This document shows positions 50,681-64,000 of a stretch of DNA of 64,000 nt, piece by piece. The position numbers and the translations under genes were made by a program. How positions within the stretch are numbered: the stretch's first letter is position 1; each line of letters starts with the position of its first letter. Below the pieces are notes generated by a model. The model made no database searches. It was not told where the DNA came from and saw nothing but the letters and a program-made list of their open reading frames with translations. The DNA comes from a bacterium (GTDB lineage: Bacteria; Patescibacteriota; Patescibacteriia; JACQRZ01), in the NCBI GenBank assembly GCA_030688365.1, contig JAUYIE010000004.1:5931-69930 (forward strand), written 5' to 3'.

Positions 50681-50738
50681 CTCCGTCCAAGAAAGACTAT
50701 ACTATTCTCACACGAGCTAATTTTCTAAAGACTCATAT

Positions 50739-51317
50739 ATGTACGAACCGAAAAACTACGATCATCTGATCGGCACACAAGGGTTTAGCGATGTTATGCT
50801 CAAAAACCATTTTACGTTGTATCAAGGGTATGTGACCAACTTTAATAAATTGAATGACACGCTCGTCGCCATAGAAAAGGAAGGGCAATTTGGTACACCC
50901 ATATTCGCCGAGCTCAATCGACGATTCAGCTGGGAATTTAACGGTATGCGATTACATGAGCTCTATTTCGATAACATGAAAAAAGACGGAGAACCAATGA
51001 CCGATGGTGAACTGAAGAAAAACATCATTGCAGAGTGGGAGAGTATGGAAGCCTGGGAAAAAGATTTCAAAGCCATGGGCGCGATGCGTGGTATCGGCTG
51101 GGTGATTCTGTATCATGACAAGGAAGCAAAACGGCTGTTTAATGTCTGGGTAAACGAACACGATGTCGGCCACTTCGCTGGCTGTACTCCCCTTTTGATC
51201 ATGGACGTCTTTGAACACGCGTTTATGATTGATTACGGCCTTAAACGCGCGGATTATATTGCAAGCTTTTGGAACGCGATTGATTGGAGTATCGTGGAAA
51301 AGAGGTTTGAGGAGTAA
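50739..51317 (+). CDS. Fe/Mn superoxide dismutase-like protein
   Basis: C-terminal DVFEHAFMIDY resembles the DVWEHAYY motif. The N-terminal domain is divergent. Confidence 0.75.
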   Translation: MYEPKNYDHLIGTQGFSDVMLKNHFTLYQGYVTNFNKLNDTLVAIEKEGQFGTPIFAELNRRFSWEFNGMRLHELYFDNMKKDGEPMTDGELKKNIIAEWESMEAWEKDFKAMGAMRGIGWVILYHDKEAKRLFNVWVNEHDVGHFAGCTPLLIMDVFEHAFMIDYGLKRADYIASFWNAIDWSIVEKRFEE

Positions 51318-51378
51318 AGATATCTGGAATAGAAAAAAGAGACTCTAATTTTACGAGTCTCTTTTTTTATATAACTTT

Positions 51379-51618
51379 TTACTCAATATAAAAATGACTT
51401 TTTAGCTGTTCTTCTCTGATCCATTTCACGCCTGTTTTATATATCGCGAGTTGTGTACCCCTATCAAGAGAGCTGTGATTGGGAACAACAAGTGTTTCGG
51501 TGTGCCCACGTGTTCTACGCAGTTTGATATGACTTCCTTTTTAAGAAATGACGACAAAACCAAAAGAAACAAAAATAGCAACAAGCTCTTTTCCTGACAT
51601 GACCCTCATTTTAGGCAT
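51379..51618 (-). pseudogene. hicA: hicA toxin gene disrupted by an in-frame TAA (minus strand, codon at + 51541-51543)
   Basis: Minus-strand translation gives MPKMRVMSGKELVAIFVSFGFVVIS-stop-KGSHIKLRRTRGHTETLVVPNHSSLDRGTQLAIYKTGV. This is a HicA fold with the GSH..LRR..G...VVP.H motif. The TAA sits exactly where HicA proteins have Q/K before KGSH. Confidence 0.65.
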
Positions 51619-51892
51619 ATTGAGGCTGGATCTCAAAATTAACCAACACTCCAGGGCGCTGGTCAATGCCATATGCCTCCCTGTCTACTACATCTTCAAA
51701 GAAGAGCTCAATTGCCTCTTCAAGATTGTGAATCACCTCATCAACAGTTTTTCCTTGTGTAAAAACAGGTATATCAATGCACTCGCCCACATAGGCATCT
51801 TCGCCTTTATATATTTTCGCTTGGATGATTTTTTTCATAAAGACTCTGTATTTATCCATGAATACCATAGCAGATGTCTGGTTAATTTGCAA
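51611..51892 (-). CDS. hicB: HicB-family antitoxin (UPF0150)
   Basis: KIYKGEDAYVGECIDIPVFTQGKTVDEVIHNLEEAIELFFE matches the HicB N-terminal fold. Immediately upstream of the hicA remnant. Confidence 0.7.
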   Translation of the reverse strand: MQINQTSAMVFMDKYRVFMKKIIQAKIYKGEDAYVGECIDIPVFTQGKTVDEVIHNLEEAIELFFEDVVDREAYGIDQRPGVLVNFEIQPQYA

Positions 51893-51903
51893 CTTCCTCT
51901 TTC

Positions 51904-52080
51904 TTAAGACTTGTCTGCTAGCCTATCTTTAATGAAACCATTTTTCTTCATAAAATTGACGACCGGTTTTGCACATATTTCACACAATTCCTTTCCATTA
52001 CTAAACCATCCTATGCGGACATATATCACGGCACCGTCGGAAATCTCTTTATGACAAATATCACACTGATGTGTCGTCAT
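51904..52080 (-). CDS. Small zinc-ribbon protein (CxxC...CxxC)
   Basis: MTTHQCDICHKE...CEICAKP, 58 aa from the ATG at 52080. Lies between the hicB and vapC modules. Confidence 0.45.
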   Translation of the reverse strand: MTTHQCDICHKEISDGAVIYVRIGWFSNGKELCEICAKPVVNFMKKNGFIKDRLADKS

Positions 52081-52087
52081 AGACAAG

Positions 52088-52140
52088 CATGTTAATGTTT
52101 AGAATCCAAACGTAGCACACGAAAAAATTGAAGGCAAATG
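52088..52140. repeat. Copy 1 of an approximately 53-bp direct repeat (catgttaatgtttagaa...acgtagcacacgaaaaaa.tga.ggcaaatg), about 85 percent identical to the copy at 52925-52978
   Basis: Direct comparison of the two segments. Together they bracket vapBC. Confidence 0.7.
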
Positions 52141-52197
52141 GAGTTCCGCTGTAGGGAAAAAGGTATGAAAAAAGAGGCTTTTTTATGAGCCTCTTTT

Positions 52198-52617
52198 TTA
52201 TACATCCTTTGGTTCGACACGTCTTACCTTTAACTTTTCAAACTCCTTGTCGTAAGATACCACCACGCCATTCTTGATTTCAAGTACCTGCGCGGCTATC
52301 AAAGTGTCAATGAATTTAACTGAATTCCCTTGATACAATTCGAGAGCTTGGAAAAAATCTCCCCCGTCTTTTATGCTCAAATACGACATTGCCACGATAC
52401 CTCCCAATAATTCAACAACATCTTCTTTTTTGAGTTTGTAGAAACTCAAACATGTCCACACAAACTCTGCCAATACGAGTTTGGAGGTGGTTGCTCGAAG
52501 TGTCCCTTCCTGTATGCGCTCGAATAGTCTTTCACAGTCTTTCGCCATCGCTACGTCATCTTTGACGACAAACCGAAGAAAGATATTGGTGTCAAGGAAG
52601 TATCTATTTCCTTGCAT
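52198..52617 (-). CDS. vapC: PIN-domain toxin VapC
   Basis: FLDTNIF N-terminus and conserved acidic residues of the PIN fold. Overlaps the vapB stop. Confidence 0.85.
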   Translation of the reverse strand: MQGNRYFLDTNIFLRFVVKDDVAMAKDCERLFERIQEGTLRATTSKLVLAEFVWTCLSFYKLKKEDVVELLGGIVAMSYLSIKDGGDFFQALELYQGNSVKFIDTLIAAQVLEIKNGVVVSYDKEFEKLKVRRVEPKDV

Positions 52618-52843
52618 ATTTTTTCTCCATACTTGCCCGTGCTTTGAGCGGATTGGTGCGTTTTTTAGGAGTAATGCGACGACCGGACGAAACGAAGTTA
52701 TTCAAGGGAATGAGACGCGCTGCCTTGTTCCCTTTTTCAATCTGCACAGCTACGCGACTATTTTTTCCTAAACGAAGCATATCCCTGATTTCTTTAGGGA
52801 TCGTAATCTGCCCTTTTTGTGTAACGGTGGTATGGTAAGGCAT
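52604..52843 (-). CDS. vapB: AbrB/SpoVT-type antitoxin VapB
   Basis: QKGQITIPKEIRDMLRL swapped-hairpin motif. 14-nt overlap with vapC. Confidence 0.8.
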   Translation of the reverse strand: MPYHTTVTQKGQITIPKEIRDMLRLGKNSRVAVQIEKGNKAARLIPLNNFVSSGRRITPKKRTNPLKARASMEKKYARK

Positions 52844-52879
52844 ATGGGTAAAGTAATACTTACTGTGTATTCCTTACTT

Positions 52880-52908
52880 ATTATGAAACATCCACTTTTG
52901 CATGTCAA
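52880..52908 (-). promoter_or_regulatory. Near-consensus sigma70-like promoter for vapBC (TTGACA-17-CATAAT on the minus strand)
   Basis: Minus strand reads ttgacatgcaaaagtggatgtttcataat, about 40 nt upstream of the vapB start. Confidence 0.4.
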
Positions 52909-52924
52909 GCGGATCAATGAGAAA

Positions 52925-52978
52925 CATGTTAATGTTTAGAACATTAACGTAGCACACGAAAAAAACTGAGGCAAATGT
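52925..52978. repeat. Copy 2 of the approximately 53-bp direct repeat; contains a perfect palindrome GTTAATGTT-TAG-AACATTAAC
   Basis: 9-bp inverted arms with a 3-nt spacer, located just upstream of the vapBC promoter and just downstream of the RT1 stop. The palindrome is degenerate in copy 1. Confidence 0.7.
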
Positions 52979-52979
52979 G

Positions 52980-53984
52980 TTACCCTGTCTCATCCAGTAG
53001 CCAATGATCGTTGAGTATACTTGTCCTTATTTTGTGGGTATTCCCATGTGATAACAGTCCGAGATATGACTGAAGCGTCGCTTCGTTAGAATCATGAGAC
53101 AACTTTTTGAACATTCGCCGTCTTGTTGTCGCCCGCAGTACATGATGATCGGCAAAGTGCACCCAGCCCAAATAATCTACCCCTGACGCAATGGTACGAA
53201 TGCTGACTTTATTGGGATGCAATGAAAGCTTGAGCTTGTCTGATAAAAAATCCTGTATCGGATCAATAGTGCGCTCGAGTATACTTCTATCCTGTGACAA
53301 CAGAACAAAATCATCGGCATATCGGATATAATGTGGCACTCGCATATCGTGCTTGATGTATTGGTCAAATAAATTCATGTATATATTGGCAAACAGTTGC
53401 GATGTAAGATTCCCCAATGGAAGTCCTTTATCACTAGACGATTTAAAACTCCCGATTATTCTTGAAAGCAACCACAATATCTTTCTGTCAGGGATATAAT
53501 CCTCCAATATACAATATAAAACGGCATGATCTATGCTCGCAAAGAATTTTCGTATATCACATTTGAGAACGTAACATGTACGAGTATTGTTCCTGCTTAC
53601 CTTGCACGAGTAAGATGTAAATCGATCCATTGCGCTGTGAGTACCTTTGCCCACACGAGCTGAAAATGAATCAGCGATAAACTTTGTTTCAAAAAAAGGA
53701 TATAATATACGGTGAAGAGCGTGATGTACCACCCGATCGCGCACCTGCGCCTTGTGGATTTCCCGTGATTTTGGATCATTGATATAAAAACGTGTATACG
53801 CGCCATGCATGTACTCACCTGACAATAGCTCCTCATGCAACGCATTGATGTTTTCAAACAGATGATCTCGAAACGCGCGGACATCCCACTTGTTCCGTTT
53901 CCCACATTCAAACTCGAGCCACGCTTCAATCAAATTGTCGTGCGAAATAATATCTTCAAATGTATGTCCCAACAATATTTTCAT
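52980..53984 (-). CDS. Diversity-generating retroelement reverse transcriptase (DGR RT1)
   Basis: RT domains 1-7, with the DGR-specific LPLGNLTSQ (GxxxSQ) replacing the group II intron QGxxxSP, plus YIRYADDFV. 334 aa. A cognate TR/VR pair lies nearby. Confidence 0.9.
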   Translation of the reverse strand: MKILLGHTFEDIISHDNLIEAWLEFECGKRNKWDVRAFRDHLFENINALHEELLSGEYMHGAYTRFYINDPKSREIHKAQVRDRVVHHALHRILYPFFETKFIADSFSARVGKGTHSAMDRFTSYSCKVSRNNTRTCYVLKCDIRKFFASIDHAVLYCILEDYIPDRKILWLLSRIIGSFKSSSDKGLPLGNLTSQLFANIYMNLFDQYIKHDMRVPHYIRYADDFVLLSQDRSILERTIDPIQDFLSDKLKLSLHPNKVSIRTIASGVDYLGWVHFADHHVLRATTRRRMFKKLSHDSNEATLQSYLGLLSHGNTHKIRTSILNDHWLLDETG

Positions 53985-54002
53985 AAAAATCCATTAAGGA
54001 AT

Positions 54003-54010
54003 CCCCCCCC
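54003..54010. repeat. Poly-C homopolymer (8 nt) in the divergent RT1-avd1 intergenic region
   Basis: cccccccc read directly. The equivalent tract in DGR2 is 10 nt. Confidence 0.9.
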
Positions 54011-54031
54011 AAGGCGTCACAAATTCCTATT

Positions 54032-54388
54032 TTGCAAAAAGCCGTAGAAACATACAAACTATGGCATTTGTTCTTACAGCAGATGCCTCGTCTTACTCGA
54101 TTTAGTCTTGGTACAAAAATCGACATATTGTTTACCGACACGTTACAGCTCATGCTCTCTGCGAAATACGCACCACGAGAACAAAAGCTGGAATACATAC
54201 GAACATTGTGCACCAACATAGATGCCATCAAATTCTTTTTGCAAATCGCGTTTGAGCTCAAGGCATTAAGCGCTAAAAAATATTCCAGTGTGTCCATACC
54301 TCTGGAAGAGATCGGAAAAATGGTCGGCGGGTGGAAAAAACAGCTGGAAAAAGAAAATCCTGCCACAAAAACTTCATGGCAGGAATGA
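54032..54388 (+). CDS. avd: Avd-like accessory variability determinant (four-helix-bundle protein, TIGR02436-like), predicted TTG start
   Basis: About 118 aa helical protein with C-terminal IPLEEIGKMVGGWKKQL, matching the Avd/23S-IVS four-helix-bundle family. Paralog at 62879-63295. Adjacent to RT and TR. Confidence 0.8.
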   Translation: MQKAVETYKLWHLFLQQMPRLTRFSLGTKIDILFTDTLQLMLSAKYAPREQKLEYIRTLCTNIDAIKFFLQIAFELKALSAKKYSSVSIPLEEIGKMVGGWKKQLEKENPATKTSWQE

Positions 54389-54399
54389 TACGAGAGAGT

Positions 54400-54523
54400 T
54401 GCTCGAACGCAAGGAAACGATAGTTGTCATTCCAATCACCAGCCAGCTTGTTGAGGTTGAGCTTACGCTTGTCGTTGTTCCTGTTCAACACAGGAGCACA
54501 CAGATCACCGTTCTCATTGCGAA
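54400..54523 (-). repeat. DGR1 template repeat (TR1), 124 bp
   Basis: Aligns base-for-base (offset +499) with 54899-55022. All 20 mismatches are T in TR on the plus strand (A on the minus strand) versus C/G/A in VR. Confidence 0.85.
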
Positions 54524-54785
54524 AATGCACGGAATATCATCTTTGACACCACCCTTTGACTCGCCATCTGGCACATTCTCGGGGTTGAATCGTATTCGGG
54601 GCATTTCAGCCCGCCAATATTCCGCACCAAGTCTCTTCGTAATCGCGAAGCAATCGGGCACACGCTGTATGGTAACAAAAAACGCCATACATTCCGGCTT
54701 CCCAAAAAGCTCCAGAGTTCGACCGCCATGAAGTCGTAACGACATGGATACTTCTCTACTTTCCAAAACTCAGTATATCACGCTG

Positions 54786-54821
54786 AATAAAAAATCCCTT
54801 AATAGTTTGTTCTATCAAGGG
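54786..54821 (-). terminator. Rho-independent terminator downstream of the DGR1 target gene
   Basis: Minus strand: CCCUUGAUAG-aacaaa-CUAUUAAGGG stem (one G-U pair) followed by AUUUUUUAUU. Confidence 0.5.
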
Positions 54822-54876
54822 AAGATAAGGGTCTAAAAATTCAAATTCTATTTCTAAACACTGAGGGACCCAGAGT

Positions 54877-55518
54877 CTAAGTGCCTTCCGAAGAAACCTG
54901 CTCGAACGCAAGGAAACGATAGTTGCCACTCCAATCACCAGCCAGCCCGTGGAGGCCGAGCAACCGCCAGTCGTTGAGCCCGTCCAACACAGGAGCACAC
55001 AGAACACCGCGCCCATCGCGAATTTCAATACCCATCAAACAAACGATTGGATATTTTAATTGTTCATCGGGGTTGTTTATGGCGTACTGTAATATTCTGG
55101 CAGGAGTAGCCTTGATCAAACCTTTTTCTTCGATCTTTTTTTCTGCATCTTCAGTCGAAATTTTTCCCAGATCAAGGATACGGACTTTTAACATTTCTAC
55201 ACCGACAGCTGGATCTATCGGAAACGTTTTTTCATTGATGTGACTGTTTACATAATAAAAATTTACGATTTTGATTTGATCGGAAAAACTCTTGTTGTTA
55301 TCAACTATTATGAGTCCAGAATTATCAACTTTCTTCGAAATTTCATTCAATGAACCGACAATAATTTGAGCAACCTTTTTCCTGCGGTCTGTGTCTTTCA
55401 AATACGCGTCTATGTGGTCATCTGTACCACCTTCATCCAGAATATCATTAAAGATAATTTTCACTACCTCAAAGATCTTTCCGAACAGTTTCAGATAACC
55501 ACTTGTTTTTTTAGCCAT
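54877..55518 (-). CDS. DGR1 variable (target) protein, 213 aa, no signal peptide; VR encodes the C-terminal roughly 41 aa
   Basis: Full ORF. The C-terminus IRDGRGVLCAPVLDGLNDWRLLGLHGLAGDWSGNYRFLAFEQ corresponds to the TR-encoded NENGDLCAPVLNRNNDKRKLNLNKLAGDWNDNYRFLAFEQ. Confidence 0.85.
   Translation of the reverse strand: MAKKTSGYLKLFGKIFEVVKIIFNDILDEGGTDDHIDAYLKDTDRRKKVAQIIVGSLNEISKKVDNSGLIIVDNNKSFSDQIKIVNFYYVNSHINEKTFPIDPAVGVEMLKVRILDLGKISTEDAEKKIEEKGLIKATPARILQYAINNPDEQLKYPIVCLMGIEIRDGRGVLCAPVLDGLNDWRLLGLHGLAGDWSGNYRFLAFEQVSSEGT
54899..55022 (-). repeat. DGR1 variable repeat (VR1)
   Basis: See TR1. The 3' end (low coordinate) has a 26-nt invariant block (putative IMH) ending 22 nt before the stop codon. 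Confidence 0.85.
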
Positions 55519-55724
55519 TTTAATGTACTCCTATTTTCGCCTACTCCTTGCTTTTCCCCTATTTTAGGGTTAGACCTAGAGCTTGCACTTATATATAACA
55601 ATACTAAGATACTTGCATATTTTACCGATTTTGTCAAGATTATGACCACCAAAAGCTTATATTTCGAAAGTGAACGAGTATTATTGAGTATGAGAAAGAG
55701 CTGACAGATATACTGAAGGGCTGT

Positions 55725-55842
55725 TTGATTTCTCTTTTAAAAATTTTATGAGCGAGTCAAGTGTTGGGAAGAAAAGTTGAAACGAGCGAATAGAAGTGAG
55801 GAGGGAGACTTACCTACTCGTTACCACCACCGTCGCCGAACG
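55725..55842. mobile_element. MITE-like element, copy 1: 118 bp with perfect 19-bp terminal inverted repeats (TTGATTTCTCTTTTAAAAA)
   Basis: Left TIR 55725-55743, right TIR 55824-55842 (exact reverse complement). The core is about 80 percent identical to the reverse complement of the core at 61784-61883. Confidence 0.7.
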
Positions 55843-55891
55843 CTTTTTAAAAGAGAAATCAAATACCCCGCTCAAGCAGGACAAACACTCC

Positions 55892-56650
55892 CTATCTCCC
55901 CTTCACCTCAATCCCCACCGGACAATGATCTGATCCCATGATATGTGGTAAGATCGCCACGCTTTTTATAGACGGTAAAAATGATTCTGATACGCAAAAA
56001 TAATCTATCCGCCAGCCAATATTTCTCTGACGTGCCCCTGCCATATAACTCCACCATGTGTACTTATCAGGACTCTCATCAAAGGCGCGGTAACTATCTA
56101 CAAACCCAGCAGAGACAATATTATCAAATCCACCCCGTTCTTCATCAGTAAATCCCGCATTACGACGATTGCTTGCTGGGTTAGCCAAGTCTATCTCTTT
56201 ATGAGCAACATTGAGATCTCCCCCAAAGATCACCGGCTTTTTTGCTTCCAGATATTTGAGATACGCCAAAAAATCTCGATCCCATTGCATACGATATGAT
56301 AGGCGTACGAGATCGCGACGTGAGTTGGGGGTGTACACCGTCACAAGATAGTATTGTGGAAATTCAAGAGTGATGACTCTCCCTTCTTGATCATGACCCG
56401 CGATACCGATACCATGCGCCACGCCGATTGGTTTTTTTCTACTAAAAATGGCAGTCCCCGAGTACCCTTTTTTCTCCGCTGAATTCCAATAATGATGGGG
56501 GTATTCTTTCAAAATCTCATCCACCTGCGATTGGTGCGCTTTTGTTTCTTGGATACACAAAACATCGGGTGCTTCCGCATCCACAAAATCCAAAAAACCT
56601 TTTCCGAGAATAGCTCGGATGCCATTTACATTCCACGAAATAATTTTCAT
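55892..56650 (-). CDS. xth: Exodeoxyribonuclease III (AP endonuclease)
   Basis: [14 protein letters not shown]-terminus and EEP-fold catalytic motifs (IQETK, GDLNV, DH). Confidence 0.9.
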
Positions 56651-56656
56651 AATAGT

Positions 56657-58831
56657 TTATTCTTCCTGTTTCTCGGGAGTGGGTTCGCCATCAGCACCTG
56701 TAGGTTTTTCCCATGACGCGTAGGTGCACTCCGGATATTTATCGCATCCATAAAACATCTTACCGCGTTTTGTTTTCTTTTCTACAACCTGACCTTTACC
56801 ACAATCGGGACATACGATACCCAGTTTTTTCAAACTCAATGAGCGGATGCTTTTGCATTCAGGATATTTACTGCATCCCAAAAACTTCCCAAACCGTCCT
56901 GTCTTGATGACCATCGGCGCTCCGCACTTATCACACGGTTCCGCTTCTTCAATCGCTTTCTTATCTTCCTCTTGTTCTTCTTTGGATTCAATCGGCTTGG
57001 TATTTTTACATTCCGGATAGCCGGTGCAAGCAAAAAATCTTCCAAAGCGACCAATCTTACTCACCATCGGCTTACCGCATTTATCACATACTTCATCGCT
57101 CACCTCTTCCGTGAGTTCCTTTTTTGAGAGCTCTTTATCTTTTTCTCCGAGTAATTTTTTGAACGGGGTATAAAACTCGCGAATGACCGGTACCCAATCC
57201 TTTTTACCATTTGCGACTTCATCGAGATCATCTTCCATGCGAGCGGTAAACTCGTAATCCACGATCTGTGGAAAATGCTCCATCAAAATATCATTCACCA
57301 GCGTTGCCATTTCTGTCGGCTTAAGGCGTCCTTCTTCTTTGATGACATATTTGCGCTCCACGATCGTGCTGATCGTCGGTGCATAGGTGGATGGACGACC
57401 AACACCATGTTCTTCAAGTACTTTGACCAGCCCTGCTTCACTGTATCGTGCAGGTGGTTTGGTAAAATGCTGCTCTGGATCAAATTTTAAAAGATCAAGG
57501 GCGTCATCTTTCTTCACAGCTGGAAGCAGTACTTCTTCTCTATCGGTCTGATACACGCGGGTAAATCCATCAAATTTTTCAATCTGACCGGTAGCACGAA
57601 AAACATACCCGGTAGACTTCTTACTTTTGAGAGTATCAATATCAATCGTCGTCGCTTCATATAGCGCATCCGGCATCTGACTCGCCACACTGCGTCGCCA
57701 TATCAGGTCATAAAGCTTGAATTGAGCGTCAGTGAGGTGTGCTTTCACTGATTCAGGTGTTCGCGACACGAGAGTCGGTCTTATGGCCTCATGTGCCTCT
57801 TGAGCGAGCTTGGATTTTGTCGCATATTTCTTTTCTCCTTTAGCATACTGTGTACCGTATTCAGATTTGATCACTTCTTGTGCTTCAGACAAAAACTTCT
57901 CGGAAAGGTTTACCGAGTCAGTACGCATATAGGTGATATATCCACCATCTTCTTCCGAACCTGCTTCAATACCTTCATAGAGTTGTTGAGCAAACATCAT
58001 GGTCTGCTTTGGTGAAAATCGTAAGCGACGGTTTGCGTCTTGTTGCAACGTAGAGGTAGTAAACGGCGTTGGCGGTTTGCGTGACGTATCTTTCATCGTG
58101 ACTTCTTTGACTGTGTAGTCCGCGCTTTCCAATTTTTTTAAAATATCTTGTGCATCTTTTTCATTTGAAATCTCAAACTTATCAAGCGTCTTTCCATCAT
58201 AGGCGTGCAAACTCGCATGAAATGAAACCGTGGTCTTGTCAGCAACATCAATCTCAATAGTCCAATATTCTTGCGGTACAAACGCTTCTATTTCCTTTTC
58301 ACGTTCCACAACCAACCGCACGGCGACGGATTGCACGCGTCCGGCGGATAGACCTTTGGCTACCTTCCTCCACAAAAATGGCGAGAGTTCATATCCCACC
58401 AGACGATCAAGCACACGACGCGCTTGTTGCGCATCTACCAAATCAAGATTTATCTGGCCTGCGTGTTCCAAGGCATCCATGACTGCCGTCTTTGTAATTT
58501 CATGAAATGCAATACGCTTGATCTTATCTTTTGGTACTTTCAAAATCTCTTGCAAATGCCATGAAATAGCTTCCCCTTCACGGTCTTGATCAGTTGCGAA
58601 ATAGACATCATCAGACGCTTTGGCAAGTTTCTTCAACTCGGTCGCGCGTTTTTGATTTGCTTTGGGGATAACATAATGCGGGGCGAAATCATGTTCAATA
58701 TCTACCCCCATCTCGCTTTTTGGAAGATCGCGAATATGACCAAAAGAAGACTCCACGCGGTAGTCTTTGCCTAAAAATTTGCTGATTGTTTTTGCTTTCG
58801 TTGGAGACTCAACGATGACCAAATGTTTCAT
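56657..58831 (-). CDS. topA: DNA topoisomerase I
   Basis: Toprim N-terminus (LVIVESPTKAK). Catalytic Tyr region. Three C-terminal C4 zinc ribbons. Confidence 0.95.
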   Translation of the reverse strand: MKHLVIVESPTKAKTISKFLGKDYRVESSFGHIRDLPKSEMGVDIEHDFAPHYVIPKANQKRATELKKLAKASDDVYFATDQDREGEAISWHLQEILKVPKDKIKRIAFHEITKTAVMDALEHAGQINLDLVDAQQARRVLDRLVGYELSPFLWRKVAKGLSAGRVQSVAVRLVVEREKEIEAFVPQEYWTIEIDVADKTTVSFHASLHAYDGKTLDKFEISNEKDAQDILKKLESADYTVKEVTMKDTSRKPPTPFTTSTLQQDANRRLRFSPKQTMMFAQQLYEGIEAGSEEDGGYITYMRTDSVNLSEKFLSEAQEVIKSEYGTQYAKGEKKYATKSKLAQEAHEAIRPTLVSRTPESVKAHLTDAQFKLYDLIWRRSVASQMPDALYEATTIDIDTLKSKKSTGYVFRATGQIEKFDGFTRVYQTDREEVLLPAVKKDDALDLLKFDPEQHFTKPPARYSEAGLVKVLEEHGVGRPSTYAPTISTIVERKYVIKEEGRLKPTEMATLVNDILMEHFPQIVDYEFTARMEDDLDEVANGKKDWVPVIREFYTPFKKLLGEKDKELSKKELTEEVSDEVCDKCGKPMVSKIGRFGRFFACTGYPECKNTKPIESKEEQEEDKKAIEEAEPCDKCGAPMVIKTGRFGKFLGCSKYPECKSIRSLSLKKLGIVCPDCGKGQVVEKKTKRGKMFYGCDKYPECTYASWEKPTGADGEPTPEKQEE

Positions 58832-58843
58832 AGCTCTTTGTTA

Positions 58844-59746
58844 TTATATCTTTACATAATACATACTTCCGACGTTTCGCACTACCCCTCGCATTTCCAG
58901 CATCAGCAGTGCGCTACTGACTATGTGGCTTTCACGCTTACATATTTGGATGAGAGTGTCAATATGGACGGGATCACTGCTCATGACCGCCAGTATACTT
59001 GCCTCAACCTCATTTTCCGGGTTACTCTCGGGTCTGGCGTATTCTTTGGGCAATGATAAAAACTCAAACGTGTCAAAAATATCTTGTAGACACGTGACAA
59101 GCTTAGCACCTTTTTTGATCAACATATGAGGACCTTCGGAAAGCGGATCAGTGAGCGGGCCGGGTAAGGCAAACACTTCCCTATTTTGTTCCAACGCACA
59201 CTGCGCGGTGATTAGCGACCCTGATCGTGCCAGTCCTTGAGCAACCAAAACACCAAGAGACATACCGGCGATGATACGATTACGAAGTGGGAAAGAATAC
59301 TTGGCAGGATGCATACCGGGTGGTGATTCTGATACCACCACTCCGCCGTTTTCTATAATACGATGCGCCAAACCCAGATGATCAGCCGGATACATACTCT
59401 CGTCATCAACACCACCACCCACTACAGCGATAGTCGTACCACCGACTTCTAGCGTGCTTTCATGCGCTAACGCGTCCACGCCATAGGCAAGTCCACTCAC
59501 CACAACAAGACCGCTTCGTGCCATATCATGCACCAACGGCGGTAAAATATTTTTACCATAGACACTCATCTTGCGACTACCTACCACGCCAATACCGTGC
59601 CACGGTTGTTTTGGCCATGTCCCACGATACCACAGCTTCTCCGGCGCGCCATGTATTTCTTTCAAAAGTGGCGGATAATCAGGATCGTCAATACTGCATA
59701 CCTTGATGCCTTGTTTTTGTTCTTGCACCTGCGAGTCAACGAGCAT
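58844..59746 (-). CDS. dprA: DNA processing protein A (DprA/Smf)
   Basis: Rossmann-like DprA core (VVVSGLAYGVDALAHESTL...IAVVGGGVD). C-terminal winged helix. Confidence 0.85.
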   Translation of the reverse strand: MLVDSQVQEQKQGIKVCSIDDPDYPPLLKEIHGAPEKLWYRGTWPKQPWHGIGVVGSRKMSVYGKNILPPLVHDMARSGLVVVSGLAYGVDALAHESTLEVGGTTIAVVGGGVDDESMYPADHLGLAHRIIENGGVVVSESPPGMHPAKYSFPLRNRIIAGMSLGVLVAQGLARSGSLITAQCALEQNREVFALPGPLTDPLSEGPHMLIKKGAKLVTCLQDIFDTFEFLSLPKEYARPESNPENEVEASILAVMSSDPVHIDTLIQICKRESHIVSSALLMLEMRGVVRNVGSMYYVKI

Positions 59747-59763
59747 GGAACCATGATAAAAAA

Positions 59764-60327
59764 TTACAAACTCAATTCAAGTCCTTTTTTGATAGTTTCA
59801 AAAACTTCTGGAAGCGCTTTTTTTTCTGTCGCAGAAAACTTACCCAAAACAAACTTTTCTCCTGATATTGTCACTGGTCTTTCAGATGCGACACCAATAC
59901 GCATACGACTAAATTCTTTCGTACCGAGCAAATCAATTATATTTTGCACACCATTGTGTCCTGCCGATGAACGGTTGTGACTTATTTTTATTTTTCCAAA
60001 TGGGATATCTAGTTCATCATGGCTAATCCAAATGTCTTTTGTGATATCGATCGTGCGATGATAGGAAAGATATTTTTTTACCGATGTGCCGGAAAGATTC
60101 ATGAACGTCAATGGCTTGAGAAATGTTATTGACTCATGCTTACCATCATCCCTTGTATATTTTGTTTCGTATGCGATATAAGTCTTGTCTTTTGAGATGC
60201 TTGGTTTTTCGATACGGCCTTCTTCCAGCCATTTTTCCATCAAATAATCTACAGCAAGAAAGCCCGCGTTGTGGCGGGTCGTTTCATACTCTGTGCCAGG
60301 ATTTCCTAAACCTACGATAAGTTTCAT
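59764..60327 (-). CDS. pth: Peptidyl-tRNA hydrolase
   Basis: MKLIVGLGNPG..YE.TRHNAGF signature. Confidence 0.9.
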   Translation of the reverse strand: MKLIVGLGNPGTEYETTRHNAGFLAVDYLMEKWLEEGRIEKPSISKDKTYIAYETKYTRDDGKHESITFLKPLTFMNLSGTSVKKYLSYHRTIDITKDIWISHDELDIPFGKIKISHNRSSAGHNGVQNIIDLLGTKEFSRMRIGVASERPVTISGEKFVLGKFSATEKKALPEVFETIKKGLELSL

Positions 60328-61694
60328 GCCGATTTCTTTTTACTTTTTTCTTCGGTGACGACCATGACGGGCGTCCCTTGGAAACTATACAACTCGCGAA
60401 GACGATTTTCCAAATACCGAAGATACTCATATCTAATACTAGCACGGCTGTTGACAGAAAGTATAAACGTCGGCGGACAGCCCAGTCGCTGTTTGATGCC
60501 AAAAATGCGCGGTCGTTTGCGTCCCATCGGCCAGATCGGCGGTTGACGTGTCATTGCTGTTTTGAGAAACGCAGTGAGTTCTTCTTGTGGAATTTCTTTC
60601 TCGCGCTCTTTCTGCACTTCAATTATTATATCAAGAATTTTCTTAACGCGCTGTTTTGTGAGGGCGGACACAAAGATATCCGGCGCCCATTTTATAAACT
60701 CAAAAAACTTATGAAAATATTTTTTGTACGCATCACTACTTTTGACTGTCTTTTCTTCCACCAAATCCCATTTGTTTACTACCAACACGATACCCGCACC
60801 GGAAGAGACAGCAATATCAGCAAGACGGCTTTCCTGTTTTGACGCGGTAGTCATGGCATCCAGTACCAAAAGTGCTACATCTGCTTTTTCAATATTTTTG
60901 ATACTGCGTTTAACTCCTTCGTATTCTATACCATGCTGAACTTTGCTTTGCTTACGGATACCGACGGTGTCGATAAGGATGATTGGCTGATCTTCGTACA
61001 CAATAATAGTGTCATGCGGTTCACGAGTGGTATGGGCGATAGGACTGGCAATGACGCGTTCTTCATCAAGAATCGCATTGAGCAAGGATGACTTACCGAC
61101 GTTTGTACGACCAACGATAGCAACTTTGATCGGTGCTTTTGTCGGTGCGGGTGTAGCGACGCGTTTGAGTAATGGATGTACTTCGTCCAAAAGGTCGCCA
61201 ACTCCTCGTCCGCTTGCGGCTGAAACACTATATCCGGAACCGATACCCAGTTTGTTCCAATTTTGTGAAGATAAAGCAATGTGTTCTTTTTGTTTGTCTA
61301 TTTTATTGATTACCAAATACACAGGCGTCTTGGTTGCTTTTTGGATGACTTTGAGATACGCACGGTCATCAGGATGGATGTCTTCTTTGCCATCTACGAT
61401 AAACAAAATAACATCTGCTTTTTTTAGCATGGCAAGCGCGTGGGCATAAGTTTTTTCCTCAATCTCATCAGTAGGCTTTGGCACAAAACCACCGGAGTCT
61501 GCCACCTGAAAGGTAAAATCACGCCAGTTGCCGATCCCATAGTTCACGTCACGCGTAGTTCCCGCGTCAGACGAAATAACGGCCTTTTTCTCTTCTATCA
61601 AACGATTAAACAGTGTTGATTTGCCAACATTAACCCGTCCTACAAGAGCAACAAGCGGGTATGGATTCTCTTTTTGTATGGTGCGGACTGGCAT
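60324..61694 (-). CDS. der: Ribosome-biogenesis GTPase Der (EngA)
   Basis: Two tandem G domains (GRVNVGKSTLFN; GRTNVGKSSLLN) and a KH-like C-terminus. Confidence 0.9.
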   Translation of the reverse strand: MPVRTIQKENPYPLVALVGRVNVGKSTLFNRLIEEKKAVISSDAGTTRDVNYGIGNWRDFTFQVADSGGFVPKPTDEIEEKTYAHALAMLKKADVILFIVDGKEDIHPDDRAYLKVIQKATKTPVYLVINKIDKQKEHIALSSQNWNKLGIGSGYSVSAASGRGVGDLLDEVHPLLKRVATPAPTKAPIKVAIVGRTNVGKSSLLNAILDEERVIASPIAHTTREPHDTIIVYEDQPIILIDTVGIRKQSKVQHGIEYEGVKRSIKNIEKADVALLVLDAMTTASKQESRLADIAVSSGAGIVLVVNKWDLVEEKTVKSSDAYKKYFHKFFEFIKWAPDIFVSALTKQRVKKILDIIIEVQKEREKEIPQEELTAFLKTAMTRQPPIWPMGRKRPRIFGIKQRLGCPPTFILSVNSRASIRYEYLRYLENRLRELYSFQGTPVMVVTEEKSKKKSA

Positions 61695-61764
61695 ATACGA
61701 GCATTAAAGCATGAAATTGGGAGAAAAGCGAGAGGAAAGAGGTGGTGTATCTCGAGCAGGGTAT

Positions 61765-61902
61765 TTGGTTCTTCTTTTAAAAAGCGTTCGGCAACGGTAC
61801 TGGTAATGAGTGTGTTAATCTCCCTCCTCACTTCTATTCGCTCATCTCAATATTTTCATCGTACATTTGACTCGCTCATAAAATTTTTAAAAGAAGAACC
61901 AA
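61765..61902. mobile_element. MITE-like element, copy 2: 138 bp with perfect 19-bp TIRs (TTGGTTCTTCTTTTAAAAA), inverted relative to copy 1 and overlapping the RT2 3' end
   Basis: Left TIR 61765-61783, right TIR 61884-61902. The last 15 codons of the RT2 ORF (FGSSFKNFMSESNVR) are encoded by element sequence. Confidence 0.7.
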
Positions 61903-62899
61903 ATACCTGCCATCTTACGTCACTCAAACCCCGTCTTATCTTCGCAGTGTTCCCGTGACTCAATAATCCCATATATGACTGCATTTGAGCAGGATCATTC
62001 TTTCCTGCTTTGATATGACGGAACATCCTCTTTTTTGTCGCTGTCCTCAACACTCGATGATCAGGAAAATGTACCCAACCGAGGAAATCAACACCCGATG
62101 AAAATGTTTTGAGAAAAAGCTTGTTGGGATGAAGCTGAAGATGTAGCCGTGAAGATAGAAACTCCTGAATCATCGGGACGAGTGTCTCTAACCATTCTAT
62201 GTCAGATGACAATACCACAAAATCATCAGCGTAACGTATGTAATACCGAGTGTGGGCGGTATGTTTCATAAACTGATCCAATTCATTCATATACACGTTG
62301 GCAAACACCTGTGATGTAAGATTGCCCAGTGGTAAACCGACACCGCGATGAGTCGTATGGAAACTACCGATGATGCGATACAAAAGATCAACAATCCGAG
62401 AATCGGGTATTGATAATTTCAATATATCAATAAGTACCTCATGCGATATAGACGCAAAAAACTTGCATATATCGCACTTGAGTGCCCATGCGGTACGAGT
62501 ATGATTCCTTGAAACGACATATTCCATAGAACGGAATCGATCAAGCGCTTTATGCGTTCCCTTTCCATCTCTGCATGAATACGAATCATGAATAAACCGC
62601 GTATCAACATACGGATACAATATACGATAAATTGCGCGATGGAGTACTCTGTCACGCACCGACGCCTTATGTATCTCCCGTGGTTTTGGATCATTGATGC
62701 GAAACGCCTGGTATGCACCGTGTCTGTATCTATTGGTCGCAAGGTCATGATGCAGTATAATAAGATTACTCATGAGATTCTGCTCAAATTCAATAACATC
62801 ACTGCGACAGGATTTTCCTATACGAAATTCTCGCCATGCCTCAAGGAGATTCTCAAGAGAAATAATATCTTCATACGTATGAATGAATTTTCCGGACAT
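61856..62899 (-). CDS. Diversity-generating retroelement reverse transcriptase (DGR RT2), paralog of RT1 with an element-derived C-terminal tail
   Basis: LPLGNLTSQVFANVYM and YIRYADDFV motifs. About 60 percent identity to RT1 across the full length. Confidence 0.9.
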   Translation of the reverse strand: MSGKFIHTYEDIISLENLLEAWREFRIGKSCRSDVIEFEQNLMSNLIILHHDLATNRYRHGAYQAFRINDPKPREIHKASVRDRVLHRAIYRILYPYVDTRFIHDSYSCRDGKGTHKALDRFRSMEYVVSRNHTRTAWALKCDICKFFASISHEVLIDILKLSIPDSRIVDLLYRIIGSFHTTHRGVGLPLGNLTSQVFANVYMNELDQFMKHTAHTRYYIRYADDFVVLSSDIEWLETLVPMIQEFLSSRLHLQLHPNKLFLKTFSSGVDFLGWVHFPDHRVLRTATKKRMFRHIKAGKNDPAQMQSYMGLLSHGNTAKIRRGLSDVRWQVFGSSFKNFMSESNVR

Positions 62900-63295
62900 A
62901 TCACTAATGTTACCCCCCCCCCGAGGCTTTTACCAGTCCTGCAAAAGATAAAGTCAGTATATATCCTCTGGCATGGATATTATCAGGTACTGCCAAAAAC
63001 TCATCGTTACAGTATTGGGCTTCGCATTGATACTTTATTCGTAGAGCTCATTGAAGCCACCTCCATAGCAGGATTCCTCTCTCGTGAAGAAAAACAACCA
63101 CTCGTGCGCATCGCTATCAGAAAAAATGACACCATAAAAATCTTTCTCATGGTGCTCTGGGAAACAGGATCACTAGAAACAAAACGATATGTCACACTTT
63201 CACTACCCCTAGAAGAAATCGGCAGAATGTTGGGCGGATGGAACGGACAACTACAAAAACAAAACTCTCCCGTCATTGCGAGGGGAGAGAAATGA
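62879..63295 (+). CDS. avd: Avd-like accessory protein (paralog of avd1), start uncertain (ATG 62879 overlapping the RT2 start on the other strand, or CTG 62939)
   Basis: C-terminal LPLEEIGRMLGGWNGQLQKQN aligns with avd1 IPLEEIGKMVGGWKKQLEKEN. N-terminal (L)QKIKSVYILWH aligns with avd1 (L)QKAVETYKLWH. Confidence 0.7.
   Translation: MNEFSGHITNVTPPPRLLPVLQKIKSVYILWHGYYQVLPKTHRYSIGLRIDTLFVELIEATSIAGFLSREEKQPLVRIAIRKNDTIKIFLMVLWETGSLETKRYVTLSLPLEEIGRMLGGWNGQLQKQNSPVIARGEK
62913..62922. repeat. Poly-C homopolymer (10 nt) between the RT2 start and the avd2 core
   Basis: cccccccccc read directly. Lies inside the avd2 ORF if translation starts at ATG 62879, and upstream of it if translation starts at CTG 62939. 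Confidence 0.9.
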
Positions 63296-63301
63296 AGAGA
63301 G

Positions 63302-63436
63302 TTGCGACGGGCAAACAACAAGCGATTGTCGGGATTGAGCATGTTGTCGGGATGAATGTAGTTCGTGTTGAGCCAGAACTCACCATCGTTGAAATTCACG
63401 TTGAACACGTTGGGATCGCCATCGGAGTCCGTAATG
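63302..63436 (-). repeat. DGR2 template repeat (TR2), about 135 bp, starting 7 nt after the avd2 stop
   Basis: Aligns at offset +498 with 63800-63934. 15 of 16 mismatches before the ragged 5' end are T in TR (plus strand) versus N in VR. Confidence 0.8.
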
Positions 63437-63515
63437 TATACCATGCCATCTGTGCCACTGCCTTATGATTACTCACAAAGCTGTATCGAATCTGCGATCA
63501 ATAATCGCCCAGCAT

Positions 63516-63543
63516 AATATACCAAGTATCTTCGTTTTTTGAA
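63516..63543 (-). promoter_or_regulatory. Candidate promoter for TR2 RNA (minus strand TTCAAA-16-TATATT), about 70 nt upstream of the TR2 5' end
   Basis: Read from the sequence. Weak match to the consensus. Confidence 0.25.
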
Positions 63544-63727
63544 TAATCTCAATCACCACACTACCCCCAATCGTAATCAAGGATATTCTGGATGAAGGGA
63601 TACTGGCTTCGGCCGCGGGAAACCATAATCTCCCGCACGATTCACCTAGCGCCACAATCAGTATACCCTTAATTTTCCAAAAAAATATTCCTCGCCATAA
63701 TTATGGTTTGGAATATTATTCAATATT

Positions 63728-63742
63728 AGGTCTAAGAGCTCG
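63728..63742. other. GC-rich hairpin (GCTCGC-ttc-GCGAGC) about 60 nt downstream of the VR2 3' end
   Basis: Perfect 6-bp inverted repeat. A second hairpin (GCGGGA-n10-TCCCGC) lies at 63621-63642. Confidence 0.35.
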
Positions 63743-63795
63743 CTTCGCGAGCAAGTAACAAAGTGCAGAAGAGTTAATCCTCCAAAAACTAAGAG

Positions 63796-64000
63796 CTACT
63801 TGCGACGGGCAAACAACACGCGAGCGTCGGGATCGAGCATGCGGTCGGGATGAATGTAGTCCGCGTAGAGCCAGAACTCACCACCGTCGAAATGCACGTT
63901 GAACACGTCGGGAGCGCCAGCGGAGTCCGTAATGGTATCCATGGCGAGAATAGCCCAGTTTCTGTCGTCTTTTTCTGCTTTTTTCAAAACGACTTCTATT
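63796..64000 (-). CDS. DGR2 variable (target) protein, C-terminal part only; the ORF is open to the window edge and VR2 encodes the last roughly 45 aa
   Basis: C-terminus ITDSAGAPDVFNVHFDGGEFWLYADYIHPDRMLDPDARVLFARRK matches the TR2-encoded ITDSDGDPNVFNVNFNDGEFWLNTNYIHPDNMLNPDNRLLFARRN. Stop TAG at 63796-63798. Confidence 0.7.
   Translation of the reverse strand, partial: IEVVLKKAEKDDRNWAILAMDTITDSAGAPDVFNVHFDGGEFWLYADYIHPDRMLDPDARVLFARRK
63800..63934 (-). repeat. DGR2 variable repeat (VR2)
   Basis: See TR2. Asn (AAC/AAT) codons in TR correspond to D/H/Y/A/R codons in VR. Confidence 0.8.

Follow-up and report, generated by a model that had tools for sequence, protein, structure and literature searches.

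Two Architecture B3 diversity-generating retroelements in a Patescibacteria genome, with a putative permuted template RNA and a candidate on/off repeat in avd

A 64,000-nt stretch of a Patescibacteriota genome (assembly GCA_030688365.1, contig JAUYIE010000004.1, positions 5,931 to 69,930 of the forward strand), here called the window, carries two diversity-generating retroelements (DGRs) on its minus strand. [quoted passage not shown] The order is the same in both: target with VR, about 360 nt, TR, avd on the opposite strand, and RT. DGR1 is complete, and the target gene of DGR2 is cut by the window end. Both cassettes are ordinary DGRs of the candidate phyla radiation (CPR, Patescibacteria) and belong to Architecture B3. 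The gene order itself is already known, being the catalogued standard for CPR DGRs, and adds nothing new. What could matter is the explanation for the order. We consider it likely that these B3 DGRs make a discrete, permuted TR RNA that is used in trans and that their avd gene is switchable.

Three features carry this proposal: a structured RNA leader upstream of TR, a terminator-like hairpin directly after TR, and a hypermutable repeat in the first ~15 codons of avd. All three are family-wide and apparently undescribed. The broader view is a thousands-strong family of CPR B3 DGRs that combines a permuted RNA of about 400 nt, with a 5' leader providing the primer and stop strand, with an on/off repeat in avd. 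We hold this broader view to be evenly poised.

Two cassettes of a known architecture

Both cassettes are real DGRs, because protein family matches occur together with TR/VR repeats and adenine-specific mismatches. The two RTs match Pfam RVT_1 at E ~1e-23 and both display LGNLTSQ, a form of the LGxxxSQ motif. The RT type was judged by this profile, the motif and the cassette context, and the RT relatives all sit in DGR cassettes. RT1 has more than 7,800 homologues at E<1e-60. RT1 and RT2 are 58% identical, and Avd1 and Avd2 40%. Avd1 (open reading frame, ORF, 54032-54388) matches bAvd (Pfam PF22296; cut-off 40 bits) with 48.4 bits (E=1.5e-12) and NCBIfam DivGenRetAVD with E=5.9e-20. Avd2 reaches 36.2 bits with bAvd (E=9e-9), under the cut-off, and matches DivGenRetAVD (NF033474) over its full length with E=4e-13. 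Both proteins score under the strict equivalog cut-off of 80 bits of DivGenRetAVD, and both cassettes carry a recognizable Avd. Adding one C to avd1 yields a 141-aa Avd that still scores 48.7 bits with bAvd.

TR and VR differ at TR adenines, read on the minus strand, with 24 A-to-N differences in DGR1 and 19 in DGR2. In the alignment as read by eye, non-adenine differences occur only at the repeat edges, save one T-to-G within the DGR2 repeat. VR1 makes up the last ~45 codons of ORF 54877-55518, and VR2 ends 4 nt before the stop codon of target gene 2. Profile searches of Pfam and NCBIfam returned no family match for the DGR1 target protein (213 aa). On diversification of VR between individuals, the sole other contig of the window's organism is 100% identical. 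Nine contigs of a related population that share RT P0017 show single-nucleotide or indel differences at only a few isolated places of their alignment. VR and TR are 368 nt apart in DGR1 and 354 nt apart in DGR2, and TR homology stops 4 nt (DGR1) and 6 nt (DGR2) from the avd stop codon. The parts of both cassettes are as follows (window coordinates).

DGR1
52980-53984, minus strand: RT gene, 334 aa; LGNLTSQ motif; Pfam RVT_1 E=1.5e-23
53964-54388, plus strand: avd; conserved ATG at 53964 overlaps RT codons 1-7; body from TTG 54032
54003-54010, plus strand: poly-C tract of eight C (C8) in the 5' coding part of avd1; candidate phase-variation repeat
54348-54357, minus strand: U-tract following the hairpin
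54358-54384, minus strand: hairpin directly 3' of TR1, over the last avd1 codons
54389-54402, minus strand: pairing block at the TR 3' end, GCAACTCTCTCGTA; pairs with the leader at -12.1 kcal/mol
54393-54523, minus strand: TR1, repeat family D3; 24 A-to-N differences from VR1
54524-54765, minus strand: structured 5' leader of the template RNA, from covariation in an alignment of 64 leaders
54772-54780, minus strand: extended -10 box TGATATACT, candidate promoter of the template RNA
54785-54822, minus strand: terminator-like hairpin and T-run after target gene 1, from a terminator scan
54877-55518, minus strand: target gene, 213 aa; VR1 at its 3' end (54892-55022)

DGR2
61856-62899, minus strand: RT gene, 347 aa; Pfam RVT_1 E=2.2e-23
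62879-63295, plus strand: avd, 138 aa; ATG 62879 overlaps the RT2 start by 21 nt
62913-62922, plus strand: poly-C tract of ten C (C10) inside avd2 codons 12-15 (TPPP)
63254-63264, minus strand: U-tract following the hairpin
63265-63289, minus strand: hairpin CTCTCCC...GGGAGAG directly 3' of TR2
63290-63305, minus strand: pairing block at the TR 3' end; pairs with the leader at -5.5 kcal/mol
63302-63445, minus strand: TR2, repeat family D2; 19 A-to-N differences from VR2
63446-63653, minus strand: structured 5' leader of the template RNA; -10 box TATACT at 63660-63665
63796-64000, minus strand: 3' end of the target gene, frame still open at the window end; VR2 at 63800-63943

An earlier note on this DNA, made from the sequence alone, had described this gene order and these strands in both cassettes, and the profile matches and TR/VR repeats confirm them. 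The note had also presented the layout as non-canonical. Any implication that it is unusual or undescribed is not supported, as passages of Wu et al. 2018 (NAR 46:11; PMC5758913), which classified 372 DGRs, give the order TR-(avd)-RT the name Architecture B3, parentheses marking the reverse strand, and assign it to 90% of the CPR DGRs in that set. The window cassettes share with B3, as described there, the order and orientation, Patescibacteria hosts and one target per cassette, and differ from it in nothing that concerns gene order. The B3 core order, free of any other accessory gene, is found in both cassettes and in 74/74 relatives. CPR affiliation of the host is indicated by RT and TopA relatives. 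The RT relatives almost all come from Patescibacteria metagenome-assembled genomes, and for TopA the closest relatives with a name are Candidatus Uhrbacteria and Patescibacteria, 59-66% identical.

The survey of related genomes that the note had called for was run on the 80 best related loci (L001-L080; 630 kb), of which 74 have upstream sequence and are usable for counting layouts. The avd gene lies opposite to and head-to-head with RT in all 74, as in both window cassettes. In 66 loci, counting both window cassettes, the RT strand carries an A-biased TR, with a median of 8.5 nt from the TR end to the avd stop codon and a median VR-TR spacer of 338 nt. Over 7.9 kb, an independent Logan contig (L081) matches the window with 100% identity. 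Because the 74 loci agree and the Logan contig is identical, the arrangement is neither chance nor misassembly, and the note's view of it as a lineage feature stands. It would be otherwise if the plus-strand avd were spurious, or an assembly inversion had occurred, and the real accessory gene lay on the minus strand. Long minus-strand ORFs do overlap avd (53956-54366 and 63007-63444), and beyond their presence no support for this possibility was found. The note had named a better Avd match on the minus-strand frame as the outcome that would overturn its claim. The minus-strand ORFs match no Pfam family, and the plus-strand ORFs match both bAvd and DivGenRetAVD, which makes them Avd-like as claimed. 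With the orientation identical across independent assemblies, a spurious or inverted avd was rejected as extremely improbable.

A structured leader and the template RNA

The interval between VR and TR, which the note had regarded as a spacer of about 375 nt, encodes a conserved structured RNA on the RT strand, placed as the 5' part of the template RNA. It contains ~230 nt of conserved blocks (window 54524-54765 and 63446-63653, both minus strand; alignment A3). RNAalifold on the alignment of 64 leaders gave 39 pairs in five main helices, 35 of them with compensatory changes. Controls were made by sliding the 3' partners by 1-3 columns and by 500 shuffles. Paired cells amounted to 94.9% compared with 38-57% in controls, double changes to 682 compared with 122-163, and the covariation score to 0.769 compared with at most 0.207. 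None of the 500 shuffles matched the observed values, so compensatory pairing exceeds the controls as expected for a structured RNA. The RNA is assigned to the RT strand because pair 353/527 is U:G in 58/64 sequences. The elements of the leader on the minus strand are listed here.

DGR1
54726-54748: helix P1
54667-54690: helix P2
54628-54642: long-range strand
54616-54627: helix P3, pairing with 54527-54538
54598-54615: helix P4
54586-54597: conserved unpaired GAAUACGAUUCA
54551-54585: helix P5

DGR2
63615-63636: helix P1
63563-63583: helix P2
63523-63540: long-range strand
63511-63522: helix P3, pairing with 63436-63447
63492-63510: helix P4
63460-63481: helix P5

Beyond its internal helices, the leader contains a strand, AAAAAATGAAGATACTTG, that pairs with the TR 3' end, GCAACTCTCTTCATTT, where TR/VR homology stops at GCAA. 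Duplexes of leader and TR 3' end average -8.0 kcal/mol for cognate partners and -5.8 kcal/mol for non-cognate partners (permutation p ~2e-4), and divergent loci strongly favour their own partner. In the anchored pairing matrix one antidiagonal stands out, with 0.67 paired against 0.25-0.53 for the others. P3 comprises 12 bp, 10 of them with double changes, and its partner segment ends 0-8 nt before TR. The P3 strand directly adjoins the long-range strand and is succeeded by the P4 stem-loop and then the conserved unpaired GAAUACGAUUCA. Pairing of a leader A-run with the U-tract after the hairpin, as a three-way junction, was considered and dropped, the better-supported register using the UUU before the hairpin. 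The minimum-energy fold of DGR2 does use this alternative.

Signals that would delimit the RNA lie on both sides. An extended -10 box, TGnTAnnnT, precedes the leader in 44/64 loci and occurs in 9/256 control windows; its distance to P1 is 19-25 nt, with one outlier of 30 nt. Directly 3' of TR, over the avd stop and last codons, stands a hairpin, conserved with the consensus CTCTCCC-loop-GGGAGAG, and after it TTTTGTTTT. A strict scan detected hairpin and U-tract in 47/66 loci and in 6/330 control windows, and most loci missed by the scan visibly carry both. The single-sequence fold of the DGR2 RNA recovers the hairpin and U-tract after TR2. This GC-rich hairpin with its U-tract at a conserved position has the form of an intrinsic terminator, and termination there is predicted. 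The target gene also ends in a hairpin and T-run, conserved at the same place in the spacer alignment. From promoter, leader, TR and terminator-like hairpin taken together, we infer that the TR RNA is a discrete transcript of ~400 nt, running from 54765 to 54348 in DGR1 and from 63653 to 63254 in DGR2.

The note had left two routes for TR, either a co-transcript with RT that runs antisense through avd or a separate RNA used in trans. The sequence favours the separate RNA, owing to the -10 box, the hairpin and U-tract after TR and the lack of excess synonymous conservation in avd; read-through is possible. TR would be transcribed from its own extended -10 promoter through leader and TR to the hairpin and U-tract. 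RT-Avd would use this RNA in trans, making antisense transcription through avd unnecessary. In a codon-aligned set of 76 avd genes, the synonymous-codon identity ratio is 1.10 compared with 1.09 for RT, and synonymous conservation is raised only in the last ~10-15 codons (1.52). A large conserved RNA hidden antisense to avd was rejected on these values.

The arrangement of the leader duplexes resembles that in the DGR of Bordetella phage BPP-1 (mtd-avd-TR-brt), the RNA of which was described by Handa et al. 2018 and Handa et al. 2024 (bioRxiv 10.1101/2023.10.23.563531). In the phage ribonucleoprotein, a single strand of the 3' spacer (Sp) takes part in two duplexes that adjoin each other. Sp47-56 with TR117-129 is the template:primer duplex, with primer A56 and G117 as first template base, and Sp59-70 with a segment just upstream of TR is the cPRT Stop of 11-12 bp. 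A short stem-loop and unpaired adenosines come next, and a stem-loop at the Sp 5' end, just downstream of TR, binds Avd (bioRxiv 10.1101/2023.10.23.563531). The window cassettes share with the phage an LGxxxSQ RT, Avd, adenine-specific TR-to-VR transfer and a stem-loop directly 3' of TR. In both systems, a bridging strand pairs with the TR 3' end and the pre-TR segment in the same 5'-to-3' order (11-12 bp compared with 12 bp here), and a short stem-loop and unpaired adenosines succeed it. The phage has its bridging strand in a 140-nt spacer 3' of TR and its avd upstream on the same strand, whereas here the strand lies in the ~230-nt 5' leader, an inverted avd occupies the DNA 3' of TR and the RNA appears to end at the hairpin and U-tract.

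We suggest that the template RNA can be read as a circular permutation of the phage DGR RNA. One leader strand would form two adjacent duplexes, with the TR 3' end and, as P3 (12 bp), with the segment upstream of TR, and a short stem-loop with conserved unpaired adenosine-rich bases would come after them. These duplexes would reproduce the phage template:primer duplex and cPRT Stop from the 5' side, and the permutation would leave the DNA 3' of TR open to avd. By position, the hairpin that directly follows TR would correspond to the Avd-binding stem-loop, and it is also a candidate for that role. A permuted, separate RNA that ends inside the avd 3' end would explain why the inverted avd lies between TR and RT. 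If the template RNA is permuted, the cryo-electron microscopy model of DGR priming could be tested on a second, independent topology, and TR boundaries in CPR genomes would become predictable from RNA structure.

Searches for known counterparts of the leader gave little. Rfam 15, which presumably holds the RT-associated motifs of Weinberg et al. 2017, returned at E<=1 over 52800-64000 only three chance snoRNA/sRNA matches, none in the non-coding RNA of the cassettes, and similarity to phage DGR RNA was not detected with its RT motifs. Motifs RT-1 to RT-19 likewise are structured RNAs adjoining bacterial RT genes. The leader differs from them in lying upstream of TR and not between TR and RT. 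The RT-10 motif is the BPP-1 TR-brt spacer, and the authors speculated that further motifs serve other DGRs (Weinberg et al. 2017). Targeted searches of Wu et al. 2018 (PMC5758913) retrieved neither a structured leader nor a hairpin and U-tract after TR.

In the population with RT P0017 (L082-L090), 5/9 contigs lack 71 nt of the leader, located ~570-640 nt upstream from the RT start. The missing piece comprises the long-range strand, the 5' strand of P3, P4 and part of P5, and a AATTCCAA repeat lies near each of its ends. The loss may be a natural deletion that inactivates the template RNA, or else an assembly variant.

A hypermutable repeat at the start of avd

The avd and RT genes begin head-to-head with their starts overlapping by 21 nt (53964-53984 in DGR1, 62879-62899 in DGR2). 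In 63/63 relatives RT residue 7 is a His encoded by CAT, the complement of which is the avd ATG. Synonymous conservation is raised over the first ~20 RT codons (1.26-1.44). The note had placed the two DGR1 start codons 48 nt apart. The gap is 47 nt if TTG 54032 is used; the family-conserved ATG 53964 instead overlaps RT. A TAATAT sequence, resembling a -10 box 12-14 nt before the avd ATG, was discounted as it lies in conserved RT codons (EDII).

A poly-C tract of 8-14 nt (mode 10) stands at this junction in 60/76 cassettes, 22-55 nt after the conserved ATG. The C8 and C10 tracts are the only two C/G runs of at least 8 nt in the window, and among such runs in the 80 related loci 60 lie at the RT/avd junction and 4 elsewhere. 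In DGR1 the tract reads as poly-G on the minus strand, 19-26 nt upstream of the RT1 ATG. Four loci with no poly-C carry perfect arrays at the junction instead: (CTGG)10.2 in L039 (3945-3985), (TGATTGC)11.1 in L049 (3911-3988), (TGGCGGC)6.6 in L051 (3939-3984) and (GT)10.5 in L072 (3956-3976). A non-triplet repeat in a 5' coding region is what is expected of a contingency locus.

The frame from the conserved ATG to the tract is open in 46/46 loci, compared with 5/46 and 8/46 for the other frames. As the ATG frame is always open and the His7 codon invariant, the conserved ATG is a start under selection, which puts the tract within the avd coding sequence. Relative to the avd body, this ATG is in frame in 15 loci, at +1 in 20 and at +2 in 11. 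In DGR1, ATG 53964 is out of frame with the body through C8 and would need C9; in DGR2, ATG 62879 is in frame through C10. In fifteen out-of-frame loci, by a hand count, the stretch from the tract to a conserved Trp is free of ATG, GTG and TTG.

Tract length was compared among contigs from different samples that encode identical RTs, using assembly consensus sequences.

RT P0017 population: C10 in seven contigs, C9 in three
RT P0115 population: C9 in one contig, C10 in three
RT P0010 population: C9 in all nine contigs
RT P0103 population: interrupted C7, no variation
RT P0045 population: C6, no variation

C9/C10 variation thus occurs in 2/3 populations with long tracts (in assembly consensus, where homopolymer error is possible) and in 0/2 with C6 or C7. 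Exact-protein look-ups of RT1 and RT2 had no match. A look-up through the neighbouring exonuclease III gene yielded one contig, identical to the window, and so gives no polymorphism data for the window tracts. A sister genome (L114) is without DGR1 and has no orthologous tract to compare.

Contingency loci are simple-sequence repeats in phase-variable genes of Neisseria, Haemophilus and Campylobacter. The avd repeat has the signature of such a locus and looks like phase variation. The likeness lies in a perfect repeat, with units of one, two, four or seven nucleotides, in the 5' coding region, a frame that is random among genomes, a tract length that seems to differ among samples of one population, and a repeat type that is replaced with its position kept. 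The differences are the uncultivated CPR host and the nature of the gene that would be switched, an accessory protein of a mutagenic retroelement and not a surface structure. With avd and RT diverging from overlapping starts, the repeat would make Avd production switchable, off in DGR1 and on in DGR2. Joined with the permuted RNA, the reading extends further: the repeat would also sit in the RT 5' untranslated region, and hypermutation would be switched stochastically, with DGR1 off and DGR2 on. We give this joint reading an even chance. A true switch would represent repeat-based on/off control of a targeted hypermutation system and a contingency-locus example in ultra-small uncultivated bacteria. 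A literature search combining DGR with phase-variation or repeat terms retrieved no description of a repeat of this kind within a DGR cassette, and the main text of Wu et al. 2018 (PMC5758913) contains neither 'homopolymer' nor 'promoter' and no avd frameshift.

Automatic gene calls in L081 and L082-L113 give avd as 101, 108 or 68 aa, or do not call it, in many cassettes. The shortening is presumably due to the frame break at the repeat. As gene callers often shorten or miss avd, DGR-finding pipelines may score cassettes as lacking Avd.

Competing explanations and genomic surroundings

Instead of a separate template RNA, TR and RT could form one transcript antisense through avd. The TR promoter would then supply the RT mRNA, the avd mRNA would be fully complementary to it, and the hairpin and U-tract would serve only in protein binding or attenuation. 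The search of the 200 nt upstream of the RT ATG, inside avd, agrees with this, as it located no positionally conserved promoter; a weak enrichment lay 80-100 nt upstream and kept to no fixed position. Overlapping or abutting starts of RT and avd also leave no intergenic room, and in the Bordetella phage TR and brt share a strand, with TR directly upstream (Wu et al. 2018, Figure 1, PMC5758913). Against a co-transcript stand the terminator-like hairpin with TTTTGTTTT, which is of textbook form and far more frequent after TR than in controls, the same kind of signal at the end of the target gene, and the lack of constraint at the RNA level across avd. Passages of Wu et al. 2018 (PMC5758913) further describe some DGRs in which TR and RT occupy different strands, so that the two need not be co-transcribed, and state that a DGR with its parts on both strands requires two transcription units or more. 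We consider a single co-transcript unlikely. The other main alternative concerns the poly-C tract, which might be no switch and instead be kept as a polyproline linker in Avd or as a G-rich element of the RT 5' untranslated region. Out-of-frame cases would reflect a downstream non-ATG start, ribosomal or transcriptional slippage, or homopolymer assembly errors, each a possible explanation of the avd frames. The tract does lie 4-37 nt upstream of the RT ATG, many loci offer a TTG or GTG after the tract and before the conserved Avd core, and gene callers annotate a shorter Avd that starts downstream of the tract. This account has difficulty with the selected upstream start and with the 15 out-of-frame loci that offer no alternative start before the conserved Trp. 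Pure CCC runs are also unexpected in a genome of 41% GC, and the four replacement arrays share with poly-C only hypermutability. In assembly consensus, long tracts vary between samples, and short or interrupted tracts are constant. We regard an explanation with no switch as rather doubtful.

Several points weigh against a permuted RNA in trans with a switchable avd. The in-frame fraction of 15/46, about one third, is what a region with no selection on frame would give, as the explanation with no switch would have it, and some of the differences in tract length between assemblies could come from homopolymer errors. No conserved RT promoter was found, so RT may rely on read-through that starts at the TR promoter. 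This promoter, the function of the terminator and both RNA ends are themselves read off the sequence, and the hairpin and U-tract could be purely structural. Single-sequence folds of the predicted RNAs are no better than shuffled (z = -1.4 and -0.9), so the evidence for structure comes from covariation. The long-range helix is A/U-rich with high background pairing, and it is weak in DGR2 (-5.5 kcal/mol). The circular permutation is a likeness of topology, not homology. Finally, the leader, the hairpin with U-tract and the avd repeat are absent from Rfam and the literature searched, which did not extend to Paul et al. 2017 on CPR DGRs, a paper that may describe some of them.

Around DGR1, the sister genome L114 (CAYHKW010000045.1; TopA 86% identical) keeps TopA-exonuclease III and superoxide dismutase (SOD), corresponding to window 50738-59194, but carries no homologue of RT, avd or the target in the interval. 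DGR1 together with its neighbours thus forms a variable island. Immediately downstream of the RT1 stop codon, a PIN-domain toxin (52198-52617) and an antitoxin of MazE/AbrB type (52604-52843) lie between the two copies of a 64-nt direct repeat (52077-52140 and 52914-52977; 81% identical). The repeat is partly palindromic by eye and could be an operator or an insertion-site duplication. The Logan contig L081 ends inside RT1 at window position 53749. The break falls within an RT1 stretch (53620-53783) that is 71% identical to RT2 DNA, and this likeness may have caused the assembly to stop.

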